From the IMG/VR virus record IMGVR_UViG_2698536649_000010: a DNA stretch of 9,075 nucleotides. One strand, written 5' to 3'. How positions within the stretch are numbered: the stretch's first letter is position 1; each line of letters opens with the position of its first letter. The position numbers were made by a program, and so were the translations under genes. Positions 1-7,641 of the stretch are shown here, piece after piece. Source of the DNA: a virus (taxonomy: Duplodnaviria > Heunggongvirae > Uroviricota > Caudoviricetes). The notes below the pieces were generated by a model. The model saw only the letters and a program-made list of their open reading frames with translations. It did no database searches and had not been told where the DNA came from.

Positions 1-83
1 GAGAATCCACCCATAACACTGTTTTTAGCTTTAACTGTTCCGCGTGCGCTTAGCCGCATTCACTGCATCACAAAATTCACTTT

Positions 84-139
84 AAAAAGGGCGGACATCA
101 GTTCATGGGCAAACAGATGCCGCCAAACGTCACCAGAAA
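84..139 (-). ncRNA. dicF: DicF-like small RNA (cell-division inhibitor sRNA of Qin-type prophages)
   Basis: Minus-strand read (revcomp of + 84..139) is UUUCUGGUGACGUUUGGCGG...CCGCCCUUUUU. The 5' 20 nt and the 3' CCGCCCUUUUUAAAGUGAAUUUUGUGAUG context match E. coli K-12 DicF as I recall it; GC hairpin plus U5 run forms an intrinsic terminator. Same strand and downstream position relative to dicA as in K-12. The central ~25 nt differ from K-12. Confidence 0.65.
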
Positions 140-472
140 ATTGATAACAGAGGGCGTTGCAGCGGGGTTGTCACTTAAGCGTATGGTCAACCTGACAACC
201 CGGTGTCCTCAACGGGGAAGGAATAACCCCGCCATACTTACCGCTGCGCCATTTCGCGGAGTGCCACAACCGGAAGCGCACGGTCGACGAAAATTTAACG
301 ACAGGCTATCTATGAACCAGCAACCTCGCCGTGCGCTTTCGCGTTATGCTCTGACTTTTCAGAGAAATATCCTTTCAGTAAACTGTCAGTGCCGGATGTT
401 CACCCGTGTCCGGCGCACGCACTCCACTTCACCCGTGGAGAACTCCTTAATTACCAACCCTCAGGAGGGTGA

Positions 473-706
473 ATGTTAAAATCAACTCTTATTGCTAAAT
501 GCCTTTATCAAAATCGCATGGTAAGCAGCATTTCAATAGGCGAGTCTGCAGTTAAAAGTATTTTCGAAGAGTACTTTCCCGGGCATGATTTTAATAAATG
601 GAATACCAAATTACCGCCAGCAGTTTCAACGCGTATTCTGAAAGCAACCGAAAGAGCAAGTACAATTCGCGTTAACTATTTCATTAAAGATTTGTGGGAT
701 CTTTGA
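473..706 (+). CDS. hypothetical 77-aa protein, convergent to the dicB-type operon
   Basis: ATG at 473 preceded by a near-perfect SD (AGGAGG at 462..467); AT-rich coding sequence; protein-like composition. 3' end overlaps the 3' end of the minus-strand 135-aa gene by 23 nt. No homolog recognised. Confidence 0.3.
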   Translation: MLKSTLIAKCLYQNRMVSSISIGESAVKSIFEEYFPGHDFNKWNTKLPPAVSTRILKATERASTIRVNYFIKDLWDL

Positions 707-1091
707 TATCCACAGAGCCTAAAGTATGTGCATATGGATGTGCTATTATGCGCCCTCGCAGATTTGCATCATTTTCTAAATTCACTGAACGAAACAGGGC
801 ATCAACAAGGCTCTGTACAATGCAAAGGCAATCGAAGACTGTCGCCGTTTCTGTTTTGATTGATGAAAGAACATGGCCATTCACGCAAACAGAAATTACC
901 CGTTTATTAACATCGCTTTCCTGCTTTTGATTATCAGAACCATATAGCCCAGAAAAAGCATTGCGCACATTACGAACCATATTATCGATGGTTTCTTTTT
1001 CTGCGGTACTAAGGTCAAGAGTAGCCAGTTGTGAACGAACTATATTCGATGCCATTTCCTGTAATGGCGTTGGTAAATCTTTAAATTCCAT
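684..1091 (-). CDS. hypothetical 135-aa protein (operon cargo, unknown function)
   Basis: ATG at 1091 with GAGG SD about 7 nt upstream on the minus strand; lies 22 nt downstream of the preceding operon gene. No homolog recognised. Confidence 0.6.
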   Translation of the reverse strand: MEFKDLPTPLQEMASNIVRSQLATLDLSTAEKETIDNMVRNVRNAFSGLYGSDNQKQESDVNKRVISVCVNGHVLSSIKTETATVFDCLCIVQSLVDALFRSVNLENDANLRGRIIAHPYAHTLGSVDIKDPTNL

Positions 1092-2451: not shown

Positions 2452-2679
2452 ATGTTGAAAATTGATGCTATAGCGTTTTTTGGCAGCAAAACAAAGCTTG
2501 CCAATGTCGCAGGAGTTAGGCTGGCAAGCGTTGCTGCATGGGGGGAACTGGTTCCTGAAGGTCGCGCGATGCGCCTGCAAGAGGCATCCGGCGGGGAACT
2601 TCAGTACGACCCCAAAGTTTATGACGAATATCGTAAGGCAAAGCGGGCGGGGCGGTTGAACAATGAAAATCACCACTGA
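2452..2679 (+). CDS. dicC: DicC-type Cro-like regulator
   Basis: 75-aa product matches recalled DicC (GSKTKLA, LVPEGRAMRLQEASGGELQYDPKVY, RAGRLNNENHH); divergent from dicA. Confidence 0.85.
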   Translation: MLKIDAIAFFGSKTKLANVAGVRLASVAAWGELVPEGRAMRLQEASGGELQYDPKVYDEYRKAKRAGRLNNENHH

Positions 2680-3214
2680 ACAGGTTTGTGAGGCTCTGGA
2701 TACCTGGGTATGCCGACCAGGAATGACACAGGAGCAGGCGACGATATTAATCACGGAAGCATTCTGGGCTCTGAAAGAACGCCCGAACATCGATGTTCAA
2801 CGCGTCACGTTTAATGATGGCGAGGTTGATCAACGGGCGCTGGGCGTTAACCGGGTGAAGATATTCGAACGCTGGAAAGCTATCGACACCAGAGATAAGC
2901 GTGACAAATTCACGGCGCTGATTCCGGCAATTATGGAGGCTATCCGGATCAGCGATTTCAGATTGTATTGTGAAATTACTGACGGAAAAAGCATTACGTA
3001 CATGATCGCCGGGTTAAACAAAGAATATGGCGATGTGGTGGAGTCCGGGCTGCTTTTTGCGGATCCAGTTGTTGTGGAACGTGAGACTGACGAGCTTATA
3101 GAAAAAGCTATTGCTTTCAAGCACGCGTATCGTCAGCAATACCAATATTACTTTGCAGATAAACAAATGTCTGCCAGGGGGTCGTATGAGTATCGATGCA
3201 CTACGATGGGCTAA
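2663..3214 (+). CDS. YdaT-like (CII-position) prophage regulatory protein
   Basis: ATG at 2663 overlaps the dicC stop; 183-aa product resembles recalled Rac YdaT in the central region (ERWKAIDTRDKRDKFTALIPAIMEAI versus WLKGETKTQREKIQKLIPAILAIL). Sits directly after the Cro-like gene. Confidence 0.55.
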   Translation: MKITTEQVCEALDTWVCRPGMTQEQATILITEAFWALKERPNIDVQRVTFNDGEVDQRALGVNRVKIFERWKAIDTRDKRDKFTALIPAIMEAIRISDFRLYCEITDGKSITYMIAGLNKEYGDVVESGLLFADPVVVERETDELIEKAIAFKHAYRQQYQYYFADKQMSARGSYEYRCTTMG

Positions 3215-3767
3215 AAAGGTGAAAACCGGCAGTTCATCCAGTAAGTCAGTATTGACCTGGCTTGCTGATATGTGCGGTGCCGATTTGTGTGCATACCCGT
3301 CTGTATCTGCACTGGCAGAAGTAACGGAACTGAACAAAAAGACTGTGCAGGACAGCTTACGACACCTGATGGAGATTGGGTTAATTGTTGATACCGGTGA
3401 GAGAAAAGGCAGAACAAAGCAAATTGTGGTGTACCGACTTATCGGTGTAGAAGAAAGTGTTGCCGAGCCTGAATACACCCAAAAACGGGAGTCTTTAAAG
3501 GTGGGTACAATTGGTGCTGTTAATAAAAACAGTACCGAAAATGGTTATGTTTCAGCACAAAACAGACCCAAAAACAGAACTCTTAGCTGCATGGAAAATA
3601 ACCAAAGACACCCAAATTTTCCATCAAAGACACCCAAAAACGGATCACGGAACCCAAAGGAACCCAAAGATCTAAACCCCACACATAACGCACGCGAGAG
3701 TGCTCCGACCAGTGAGCAGGAAGTTTTGTCGTTACAGGCAGCCCCCCTGTATTCCTGTATGGCCTGA
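3186..3767 (+). CDS. replication initiator, N-terminal winged-helix part (lambda O-like role); probably truncated by a frameshift
   Basis: ATG at 3186 with GGGGG SD. N-terminal HTH-like region, then a low-complexity linker encoded across iteron-like repeats. Frame ends at TGA 3765..3767 shortly after a C6 homopolymer (3742..3747); the following frame carries the DnaT-like continuation. Confidence 0.6.
   Translation: MSIDALRWAKKVKTGSSSSKSVLTWLADMCGADLCAYPSVSALAEVTELNKKTVQDSLRHLMEIGLIVDTGERKGRTKQIVVYRLIGVEESVAEPEYTQKRESLKVGTIGAVNKNSTENGYVSAQNRPKNRTLSCMENNQRHPNFPSKTPKNGSRNPKEPKDLNPTHNARESAPTSEQEVLSLQAAPLYSCMA
3475..3670 (+). repeat. iteron-like direct repeats (candidate replication origin) inside the initiator gene
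   Basis: Six copies of an ACCCAAA-core motif with core at 3477, 3566, 3609, 3631, 3652, 3662. Spacings of 43, 22, 21 and 10 bp approximate multiples of a helical turn. Position inside the linker-coding part of the initiator gene parallels ori-lambda inside O. Confidence 0.45.
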
Positions 3768-3790
3768 GCGAACCCATCGGAAAATTCCCG

Positions 3791-4225
3791 ATGAGCGATA
3801 GCTGGTATCCGTCACGGGATTTTCGACGACGGGCTGCGTTGTGGGGGATGGCTTTGCCGGAGACAGAATTTACACCTGCTGAACTTGCCGCCTTCCGGGA
3901 CTACTGGGCAGCGGAGGGGAAAGTGTTTACGCAGATTCAGTGGGAGCAGAAATTCGCCCGTCACGTAAATCACGTCAGGGCGCAGGTTAAACCAGTCAGC
4001 AAAGGGGTAAACCATGCAGCAGCACCAGGTGGCACCGCATCACGGGCAGTTCAGGAAATTCGGGCAGCACGTGAGCAGTGGGAACGTGAAAACGGATTTA
4101 TCAGCGACGGAAACGGCCTGGAAGCTGTGGGAACTCATGGGGGTGGTTTATTCGAACCGCTGGATCCAGAAGAACGGGGCCGCACCTTCGAAGCTCTGGA
4201 TTGCACAGATTGGCGCGATGACTGA
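3791..4225 (+). CDS. DnaT C-terminal-domain-like (primosomal protein I-like) ORF; probably the frameshifted C-terminal half of the initiator
   Basis: Product YPSRDFRRRAALWGMALPETEFTPAELAAFRDYWAAEGKVFTQIQWEQKFAR aligns with recalled E. coli DnaT ([55 protein letters not shown]). The similarity continues upstream of ATG 3791 in the same frame (EPIGKFPM versus VPMGKFAM), where no start codon exists. 3' end in this frame (4225) overlaps the P-like gene by 212 nt, so the true stop is uncertain. Confidence 0.5.
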   Translation: MSDSWYPSRDFRRRAALWGMALPETEFTPAELAAFRDYWAAEGKVFTQIQWEQKFARHVNHVRAQVKPVSKGVNHAAAPGGTASRAVQEIRAAREQWERENGFISDGNGLEAVGTHGGGLFEPLDPEERGRTFEALDCTDWRDD

Positions 4226-4679
4226 GCAGCAAATCCGGCAGGTCTGCCGCCAGTGCATGGACCGCTGCCGGGCGGGTGAAACATGGCCTCCGGACCTGGC
4301 TGAGTTTGTGGCACTGATTTCGAAAAGCGGAGCCAATCCATTCGGTCTGACGGTGGATGCTGTGATGGAGGAGTACCGCCGCTGGCGCAATGAGTCCTGG
4401 CGATACGACGGAAGTGATAAGTACCCGTGGTCTCAGCCTGTGCTGTATCACATTTGCCTCGAGATGCGTTCAAAGGGGATTGAGCGCCAGATGACCGAAG
4501 GGGAATTAAAACGGCTTGCAGAACGGCAACTGACGAAATGGGCAAAGCATGTTAGTAACGGCCTGAGCGTTCCGCCAGTCCGGCGACAACTGGCGGCCCC
4601 CAAACGCCCGTCGGGGCCAACGCCAATTGAGTTGCTGAAACAGGAATATGAACGCCGGAAAGCGGCCGGTTTTGTCTGA
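4014..4679 (+). CDS. lambda P-like replication protein (DnaB helicase loader)
   Basis: ATG at 4014 with AAGGGG SD 7 nt upstream; 221 aa. C-terminal half aligns with recalled lambda P (YDGSDKYPWSQPVLYHICLEMRSKGIERQMTEGELKRLAERQL versus YPDAESYPWKSNAHYWLVTNLYQNMRANALTDAELRRKAADEL). Confidence 0.75.
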   Translation: MQQHQVAPHHGQFRKFGQHVSSGNVKTDLSATETAWKLWELMGVVYSNRWIQKNGAAPSKLWIAQIGAMTEQQIRQVCRQCMDRCRAGETWPPDLAEFVALISKSGANPFGLTVDAVMEEYRRWRNESWRYDGSDKYPWSQPVLYHICLEMRSKGIERQMTEGELKRLAERQLTKWAKHVSNGLSVPPVRRQLAAPKRPSGPTPIELLKQEYERRKAAGFV

Positions 4680-6307: not shown

Positions 6308-7066
6308 ATGAGGAACATAATGGCAGGTTTTTTAATATTCCTGTCTTCTGCTGCTTATGCTGATATCAATCTGTATGGTCCTGGTGGCCCGCATACAGCC
6401 TTGCTTGATGCAGCCAAACTTTATGCCGAAAAAACAGGTATTATAGTGAACGTTCATTACGGCCCACAGAACAAATGGAATGAAGATGCCAAAAAAAATG
6501 CAGATATCTTGTTTGGCGCATCAGAACAATCTGCTCTGGCTATCATTCGGGACCATAAAGACAGCTTCAGTGAAAAAGATATTCAGCCTCTTTATCTGCG
6601 AAAAAGTATTTTACTGGTAAAGAAAGGTAATCCTAAAAATATCCGGAGTATTGACGACCTGACCAGACCTGGGATTGGCGTAATTGTTAATGATGGTGGT
6701 GGTACCAGTAATACATCAGGCACTGGCGTCTGGGAAGATATTGCCGGACGTAAAGGGAATATAGAAACTGTCGCCGCAATCCGAAAAAATATTATTTTAT
6801 ATGCGCCCAATAGCGGAACTGCACGTAAGGCTCTTGAGAATCAGCCTGGAGCAGATGTCTGGATAACCTGGGCTGACTGGGCAGCCAGTAATCCAGAAAT
6901 TGGTGATGTCGTGGAAATAGCGCCAGACTACGTGATATGGCGTGATATGAACATTACAGTACGTCAGGATGCAAATGATGAAACCCGTCGATTTGCAGAA
7001 TGGCTACAAACCGATGAAGCGGCGCCTGCATTCAAAAAATATGGCTGGACCAGGAAAGGCACTTGA
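6308..7066 (+). CDS. secreted periplasmic substrate-binding protein, ModA-like fold; orphan (no transporter genes adjacent)
   Basis: 252-aa product with N-terminal signal peptide (MRNIMAGFLIFLSSAAYA then DINLYG). Resembles recalled E. coli ModA at several points (ADILFGASEQSA versus ADLFISADQKW; C-terminal RFAEWLQTDEAAPAFKKYGW versus AFYDYLKGPQAAEIFKRYGF). AT-rich codon usage. Confidence 0.8.
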   Translation: MRNIMAGFLIFLSSAAYADINLYGPGGPHTALLDAAKLYAEKTGIIVNVHYGPQNKWNEDAKKNADILFGASEQSALAIIRDHKDSFSEKDIQPLYLRKSILLVKKGNPKNIRSIDDLTRPGIGVIVNDGGGTSNTSGTGVWEDIAGRKGNIETVAAIRKNIILYAPNSGTARKALENQPGADVWITWADWAASNPEIGDVVEIAPDYVIWRDMNITVRQDANDETRRFAEWLQTDEAAPAFKKYGWTRKGT

Positions 7067-7249: not shown

Positions 7250-7302
7250 GCTGCGGGTGCTTGAGGCTATCTGCCTCGGGCATGAACACCAACGGCAGAT
7301 AG

Positions 7303-7353
7303 ATAAAAGCCCCACCCGACTATAAATCGAAGTGAGGCCCCTATATGCTCGTC
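7303..7353 (-). ncRNA. candidate Sok-like antisense RNA
   Basis: Minus-strand hairpin (7309..7339, stem with two G-U pairs) followed by a U-run (7308..7303). Possible promoter on the minus strand: -35 TTGACC (+7383..7388), 17-bp spacer, weak -10 CAATCT (+7360..7365). It is antisense to the hok leader around the mok start, where Sok acts in known hok/sok loci. Confidence 0.3.
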
Positions 7354-7401
7354 ACATATAGATTGCCTCTTACGGACCGAAAGGTCAAGGAGAAGCAGGC
7401 T

Positions 7402-7458
7402 ATGAAGCAGCAAAAGGCGATGTTAAAAGGCGGGGGAGAAATCCCTCGCCACCTCTGA
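7402..7458 (+). pseudogene. hok: truncated hok toxin ORF (18 codons; HokD-like N-terminus, transmembrane segment absent)
   Basis: Encodes MKQQKAMLKGGGEIPRHL then stop. The first 8 residues match recalled HokD/RelF (MKQQKAMLIALIVICLTV...); the hydrophobic helix and C-terminal domain are missing in all three frames before the terminator, implying an internal deletion of roughly 100 to 130 bp. Confidence 0.55.
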
Positions 7459-7490
7459 TGTGTCAGGCATCCTCAACGCACCCGCACTTA

Positions 7491-7516
7491 ACCCGCTTCG
7501 GCGGGTTTTTGTTTTT
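7491..7516 (+). terminator. intrinsic terminator of the hok-type mRNA
   Basis: Stem ACCCGC / GCGGGT with loop TTCG, followed by TTTTTGTTTTT. Confidence 0.7.
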
Positions 7517-7641
7517 ATTTTCAACGCGTTTGAAGTTCCGGACGGCGCCGGAATAGAATCAAAAATACTTAAGTAGCGCGCAGGGAGAAGAGGGATGGAC
7601 CCCGAACAGGGGAGTGCTATTTATCTGGAAGGATTCTGTTG

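Follow-up and report, generated by a model that had tools for sequence, protein, structure and literature searches.

The window, by which we mean the whole 9,075-nt stretch analysed (Caudoviricetes virus record IMGVR_UViG_2698536649_000010), carries close to its left edge a dicF allele on the minus strand, with DicF nt 1 at window position 139 and the end of the U-tract at position 84. DicF nucleotides were numbered such that nt n corresponds to window position 140 − n; the allele is referred to as class B and the K-12 type as class A. The reverse complement of positions 84–139 reads TTTCTGGTGACGTTTGGCGGCATCTGTTTGCCCATGAACTGATGTCCGCCCTTTTT. Coordinates of the parts of the locus, of neighbouring genes and of the related elements in EDL933 are collected in Table 1.

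Table 1 Features of the class-B dicF locus in the window and of DicF-type elements in EDL933
Feature	Position	Strand	Basis or remark
Class-B dicF allele	84–139	(−)	56 nt including U-tract; Rfam match, K-12 alignment, dicB synteny
Single-stranded 5′ tail, nt 1–15, UUUCUGGUGACGUUU	125–139	(−)	Unpaired in MFE and centroid structures; seed common with K-12 DicF
Hairpin, nt 16–50	90–124	(−)	GGCGG CAUC U GUUU [GCCCAU] GAAC U GAUG U CCGCC
U-tract (T5), 3′ of hairpin	84–88	(−)	Sequence and fold; same as K-12
dicF leader (3′ UTR of upstream gene)	140–459	(−)	Homologous to K-12 ydfC–dicF spacer (blastn)
dicF–dicB spacer, first 83 nt	1–83	(−)	Two class-B-specific bases common to Rac-type element
ydfC	1114–1332	(−)	PGAP in identical genomes; 95% identical to K-12 ydfC; upstream gene of dicBF-type operon
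DicA-like HTH repressor gene	1968–2375	(−)	Pfam HTH_3 4e-14; head of immunity region
Cro/DicC-like gene	2452–2679	(+)	P22_Cro 3e-13; divergent from DicA-like gene
Class-A copies, EDL933	CP008957 1,253,115; 1,894,339; 2,345,130		
Class B, EDL933	CP008957 1,847,321		
Rac-type DicF-like element, EDL933	L417 18460–18515 = CP008957 2,168,459–2,168,514	(+)	'DicF_3' of older annotation

Many O157:H7 and O121 chromosomes matched positions 1–720 of the window at 100% identity. In identical genomes (O157:H7 PV15-279) a 62-aa dicB on the same strand starts 87 nt past window position 1, just where the earlier note, made from the sequence alone, had predicted it; after it come a DUF1482 (ydfD-like) gene, an exonuclease gene, xis and int beside ompW. 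dicB was found downstream in 25/25 class-B loci with enough downstream sequence. The allele has ydfC-type genes on its upstream side and dicB on its downstream side, with a DicA/DicC-like switch in the same region; dicA and dicC are annotated in phage PPompW_132418. Judged by gene order and homology, the class-B locus occupies the dicF slot of a dicBF-type early-left operon; the lambdoid prophage concerned is integrated at ompW, is of the CP-933O/OI-57 type and belongs to O157:H7-like E. coli.

Several other features of the window were recorded. The paa gene (AcfC-family adhesin, 6308–7066, plus strand) is a marker of the OI-57/CP-933O-type ompW prophage. A DnaT-like replication gene (approximately 3187–4226, plus strand) is split into two ORFs here; it has an annotated frameshift in F3113 and an IS1203 insertion in PV15-279, while EDL933 has it intact. 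hokD (7402–7560), beside the sok antitoxin RNA, has lost 137 nt compared with O157:H7 F3113 and EDL933 and is thereby destroyed, its first 8 codons being all that is left. Relative to K-12 Qin, a 634-nt insertion at 460–1093 separates ydfC from the dicF leader; it contains a 135-aa ORF (684–1091, minus strand, phrog_1363) and, overlapping it, a 77-aa ORF with a strong AGGAGGG Shine–Dalgarno (SD) sequence (473–706, plus strand, phrog_10348), both of no known function. Sub-threshold matches to STnc100 (RF02076; 34–35 bits vs. 47) were located in the spacers between the DicF-type elements and dicB or kilR (window 1–83; L002 2447–2587; L417 18517–18703), and this sequence similarity suggests a conserved leader common to the dicB/kilR division-inhibitor genes.

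The earlier note had read positions 84–139 as a DicF homolog, which alignment to K-12, dicB synteny and a covariance-model match upheld, the element being on the minus strand. A permissive local search of window positions 1–400 with the Rfam DicF model RF00039 gave a full-model match at 138–89 (−) with E = 2.1e-08 and 43.5 bits, compared with 76.7 bits for the K-12 dicF allele in an equivalent search. The match is significant by its E-value, but stays below the curated gathering score of 48 bits, so that the covariance model supports the assignment as a borderline case, and the allele is for this reason missing from default Rfam scans: at the gathering threshold, the scan of the window did not report DicF and returned as its sole match the sok RNA at 7255–7404 (plus strand, RF01794, 103.9 bits), and DicF was likewise not reported in the class-B region of EDL933.

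Aligned by blastn, window positions 459–1 correspond to positions 2063–2523 of the K-12 locus L002. DicF nt 1–20, the GGCGG/CCGCC clamp (CCGCCC) and the T5 tract are the same in class B and K-12 Qin, as are the approximately 125 nt directly upstream of nt 1, and the 83-nt 3′ flank shows 5 differences, with flanks overall 97–100% identical. Differing columns concentrate in the hairpin interior (15/29 in DicF nt 21–45 vs. 9/303 outside; Fisher p = 1.9e-12). The view of the earlier note, that the 5′ 20 nt, the terminator and the 3′ flank are retained while the central ~25 nt diverge, was thus borne out. Its assignment of the 5′ 20 nt to ftsZ pairing was not supported, since the published partner of the 5′ end is xylR, and ftsZ pairs with the 3′ region (PMC5069750).

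Both alleles fold on a common plan, in which an unpaired 15-nt tail precedes a GGCGG/CCGCC-closed hairpin and a U-tract, with −17.3 kcal/mol for class B (z = −2.8, hairpin followed by U5) and −15.9 kcal/mol for K-12. Folding of both variants, as the earlier note had proposed, also revealed inner helices that differ in register; the hairpin interior of class B has 2 nt fewer. Class B lacks the K-12 loop UUACUCCGU, which contains the anti-SD motif CUCC, and has GCCCAU in its place, which makes up the entire 6-nt MFE loop; the Rfam DicF consensus retains UUUACUCcGU, including the anti-SD CUCC. A covariation test across both classes gave 0 compensatory pairs, the common pairs being those of the 5-bp clamp only, and covariation therefore provides no argument for structure conservation. 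A simple terminator scan did not flag the class-B hairpin because of its interior mismatch. By analogy to K-12 DicF biogenesis (PMC9438474), hairpin and U-tract would constitute an intrinsic-terminator or Hfq-type 3′ module, and the surroundings of the 5′ end made by RNase E would lie in the leader, a processing role taken from the literature. The U-U mismatch and the altered hairpin might either raise or lower termination efficiency, stability or Hfq binding. On the opposite strand, the loop sequence (GTTCATGGGCAAA) creates an ATG, which opens a 124-aa plus-strand ORF (window 105–479); this ORF had no Pfam or PHROG match, is unannotated in identical genomes and is probably spurious.

The exact class-B allele was detected in 289 of 5,426 complete E. 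coli genomes, always on the chromosome and nearly always as a single copy; the class-B genomes among the matches listed were O157:H7 and O121. It is unchanged in 287 of the 289 genomes and in E. albertii, in whose type-strain assembly it is the only allele that matched a class-neutral pattern. K-12-type alleles were found in 3,968 genomes at up to 7 places each. Class B was absent from 50,697 phage records and was not found in print in the literature searched. Class-A-like dicF loci are carried by 44 sequenced phage genomes (e.g. OV696610.1 Tritos and LC567822.1 PPompW_132418), in one of which DicF is annotated; a 2016 report had found no dicF in phage databases.

EHEC O157:H7 has been described as carrying dicF in four copies (Melson and Kendall 2019, as cited in PMC7873438), and the designations DicF_1–4 in EDL933 stem from a 2014 Rfam annotation used by Neuhaus et al. 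2017 (PMC5331693). According to order, strand, length and the spacing to sok and STnc100, these four Rfam entries correspond to the three class-A copies and the Rac-type element, and the EDL933 class-B locus fits none of the four published DicF coordinates or spacings. An identification of class B with 'DicF_2', based on the dicF–sok spacing, was rejected after the fetched loci revealed DicF_2 to be the neighbouring class-A copy. Likewise, the missing PGAP ncRNA feature was rejected as specific to the variant, as class-A copies are also unannotated by PGAP. In EDL933, the leader at the class-B locus lacks 86 nt at a point 119 nt upstream of nt 1 (L416 ~12,340; CP008957 ~1,847,440), a deletion absent from the window, F3113 and PV15-279.

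The origin of the class-B hairpin was traced by comparison with further prophage elements. Since 15-mer scans of IMG/VR gave mostly chance matches, these were filtered before use. The IMG/VR alleles fell into two discrete hairpin classes, class A with three tail variants and class B with two, and no intermediates between them were present among 20 alleles. A third DicF-like element of 56 nt, which scored 39.1 bits in a permissive Rfam scan and is thus also below threshold, is located between sieB and kilR in a Rac-like prophage of EDL933. In a three-way alignment, leader and tail of class B equal those of class A and bear no relation to the Rac-type element, whereas class B is identical to the latter at nt 21 and throughout the 13-nt 3′ arm CTGATGTCCGCCC; the 5′ arms of these two differ at one base (the U-U mismatch). 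Two further class-B-specific bases of the 3′ flank match the Rac-type element, and beyond them class B again equals class A.

A scan with the 3′ arm and flank retrieved 34 distinct elements with the arms GGCGGCATC(A/G/T)G...CTGATGTCCGCCC and the flank TTTTTAAAGTGAATTTTGTGATG, which combine many different 5′ tails and loops with these constant arms. We define them here as a wider family of lambdoid early-left terminator/sRNA elements, which includes the Rac-type 'DicF_3'; the downstream ORF is dicB for classes A, B and D and kilR for class C. Given that 34 elements share the arms, it is the class-B hairpin that represents the family-typical scaffold, whereas the K-12 hairpin, bearing the anti-SD loop, is the specialised form. 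A class-A carrier with the same ompW integration site, phage PPompW_132418 (LC567822.1), shares approximately 2.2 kb of identical sequence with the window, with 0 differences at ~400–1800 and only two up to ~2600. Differences from the class-B region start ~90–125 nt upstream of nt 1, continue across the hairpin as far as ~+131 and are dense within dicB, a pattern indicating recombination between related prophages and not gradual drift. On these alignments, class B is a recombination mosaic, in which a Qin-type leader and tail are joined to a family-typical hairpin.

For K-12 DicF, the 5′ end has been reported to pair with xylR and the 3′ region with ftsZ and pykA (Balasubramanian et al. 2016, PMC5069750); DicF9, a mutant of the 3′ region with an intact 5′ end, has lost ftsZ repression (PMC5069750). 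manX is paired by the 3′ end, with a footprint of G150–C167 in a transcript with a 115-nt UTR (Azam and Vanderpool 2018, PMC5861419), which converts to +35..+52. The 5′ end of the RNA is generated by RNase E and the 3′ end by the terminator or RNase III, and the RNA is Hfq-dependent and inhibits division on overexpression (PMC10448788, PMC9438474, PMC5069750).

Target interactions were predicted by a loop-limited, accessibility-aware calculation benchmarked on the published manX footprint, which replaced plain RNAduplex-style prediction, as the latter allowed huge internal loops and was uninformative. For class A, the calculation placed the ftsZ site at −28..−4 across the SD sequence (DicF nt 27–52), the pykA site at −18..+3 (nt 24–42) and the manX site at +35..+52 (nt 36–53), the last being exactly the published footprint. 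None of these hairpin-dependent sites in ftsZ, pykA and manX was found for class B by the same calculation. Pairing of xylR +10..+19 with DicF nt 6–15 was predicted as a perfect 10-bp duplex of −12.5 kcal/mol, identical for both alleles. The energy model heavily penalises seeds embedded in hairpins, with the validated class-A sites totalling just −7.6 to −11.3 kcal/mol, and a missing predicted site therefore does not prove missing regulation.

Hybrid-only energies of the hairpin regions, with accessibility ignored, were compared to dinucleotide-shuffled targets (n = 40 per target). The observed class-A value was reached by 0/40 shuffles for ftsZ, 1/40 for pykA and 0/40 for manX, and the class-B value by 16/40, 6/40 and 4/40, respectively, of which manX and pykA lie near the tail of the null distribution. 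The ftsZ initiation region and leader used were 100% identical in O157:H7. For the EHEC target pchA (Sakai Sp4 sequence), the SD sequence was predicted to pair onto +24..+31, which agrees with the anti-SD model in the literature (PMC7769764). Complementarity to this anti-SD region was seen for the class-A hairpin region only (−25.1 kcal/mol, 4/60 shuffles); for the class-B hairpin region, 54/60 shuffles reached the observed value, and the common 5′ tail was at chance.

From these calculations, class B probably lacks above-chance pairing with ftsZ, pykA or manX, and K-12-style silencing of ftsZ is probably lost, whereas 5′-tail targets such as xylR should be retained by analogy to K-12. The earlier note had left the choice between an allele with the same targets and one of altered structure. 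As the hairpin segment replaced in class B is the one that pairs with ftsZ, pykA and manX, the first option is unlikely and the second, on the predicted pairings, the better one.

We favour, with moderate confidence, the reading that class B encodes a functional DicF-type sRNA that retains the 5′ seed and has lost the division-inhibiting second seed, a reading built on pairing predictions and the K-12 analogy. By this analogy, RNase E would release the class-B RNA from the transcript of the operon by cutting at the 5′ junction, which is the same as in K-12; the hairpin with its U-tract would form the 3′ end, and the RNA would work together with Hfq. With its 5′ tail intact, the RNA would keep xylR-type targets, and replacement of the hairpin body and the anti-SD loop would cost it the pairings with ftsZ, pykA and manX, and with them the repression of these genes. 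Such an RNA would amount to a naturally occurring separation-of-function DicF, with no block of cell division by way of ftsZ.

Among the alternatives, the element might serve only as a terminator or attenuator of the early-left operon ahead of dicB, with the released RNA having no role in trans. Arms and 3′ flank recur ahead of dicB or kilR in numerous elements whose 5′ tails are unrelated, which fits such a conserved cis-acting terminator/leader function, and an RNA-seq table from LB culture has no entry for the class-B allele. We nevertheless consider this alternative unlikely: the DicF leader and tail, including the xylR-pairing residues, are conserved base for base over ~125 nt upstream despite the neighbouring recombination, the same architecture yields a stable Hfq-dependent sRNA in K-12 (PMC5069750, PMC9438474), and the roles of terminator and sRNA can coexist.

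It is rather improbable that class B has been neofunctionalised, such that the new loop and stem (GUUUGCCCAUGAAC) provide a second seed for other targets, e.g. mRNAs with GUUCAUGGGC around the start codon. The hairpin body is the segment that serves K-12 DicF as its second seed, the class-B loop is unique among the 34 related elements, and the allele is nearly invariant in E. coli and E. albertii, but this near-identity may simply reflect recent clonal spread of the O157:H7 and O121 lineages, and the MFE loop offers just 6 nt. A new loop-borne specificity would be compatible with the separation-of-function reading.

That class B is simply an equivalent DicF allele, whose hairpin changed by neutral drift or compensation and which continues to repress ftsZ along with the remaining DicF targets, is very doubtful: the operon position, 5′ tail and overall fold are those of K-12 and the tail is weakly complementary to ftsZ +16..+25 (−4.7 kcal/mol), but DicF9 lost ftsZ repression with just such an intact tail, the class-B hairpin is complementary to the ftsZ translation initiation region at no more than chance level and lacks the CUCC loop, and the two hairpins have the clamp alone in common, with no compensatory pairs.

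DicF is a textbook prophage sRNA through which prophage induction is coupled to division and metabolism of the host and, in EHEC, to virulence; its toxicity has been attributed in part to ftsZ repression. Extending the separation-of-function reading to the genomes in which class B occurs, it is possible, although we lean against it, that EHEC O157:H7, O121 and E. albertii possess an overlooked additional dicF gene of this type, with the xylR-type seed kept and the ftsZ/pykA/manX seed lost, as one product of a combinatorial prophage system. If so, interchangeable 5′ seeds and loops would have been recombined onto a common terminator scaffold ahead of division-inhibitor genes in lambdoid prophages, annotation pipelines would miss class B since it scores below the Rfam threshold, and, provided that class B was not removed in the published EHEC quadruple dicF mutant, residual 5′-seed DicF activity would be expected there.

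An allele with the 5′ seed and a replaced second seed would represent a ready-made natural tool for separating the functions of DicF. The dicF copy number of EHEC would have to be recounted, as copies with different target sets would not be redundant. As the allele shows, annotation at the Rfam threshold undercounts dicF loci in reference pathogens. The wider family, in which constant arms occur with variable tails and loops, offers a concrete case of modular sRNA evolution through phage recombination.

Compared with known systems, class B is an unannotated variant of a well-known sRNA and not a new kind of element. It possesses the 5′ seed UUUCUGGUGACGUUU and the 3′ stem-loop with U-tract of DicF and lacks the ACUCC loop complementary to the ftsZ ribosome binding site. 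With K-12 Qin DicF (RF00039) it shares the operon slot ydfC ... dicF–dicB–ydfD-like, but it differs in the hairpin interior, the anti-SD loop and the pairing with ftsZ, pykA and manX, which is predicted to be lost. The multiple dicF copies of EHEC O157:H7 occur in the same group of organisms and at the same type of lambdoid-prophage locus, but the four listed comprise three class-A copies and one Rac-type element. The Rac-type element, in turn, has the 3′ arm CTGATGTCCGCCC, a near-identical 5′ arm GGCGGCATC(A/T)G and the flank TTTTTAAAGTGAATTTTGTGATG in common with class B and likewise lies upstream of a division-inhibitor gene, in its case kilR instead of dicB, whereas its leader and 5′ tail are unrelated (no DicF seed) and its loop is longer and U-rich. 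With respect to the wider family, class B has both its arms with the 3′ flank and its position directly upstream of a dicB/kilR-type gene.
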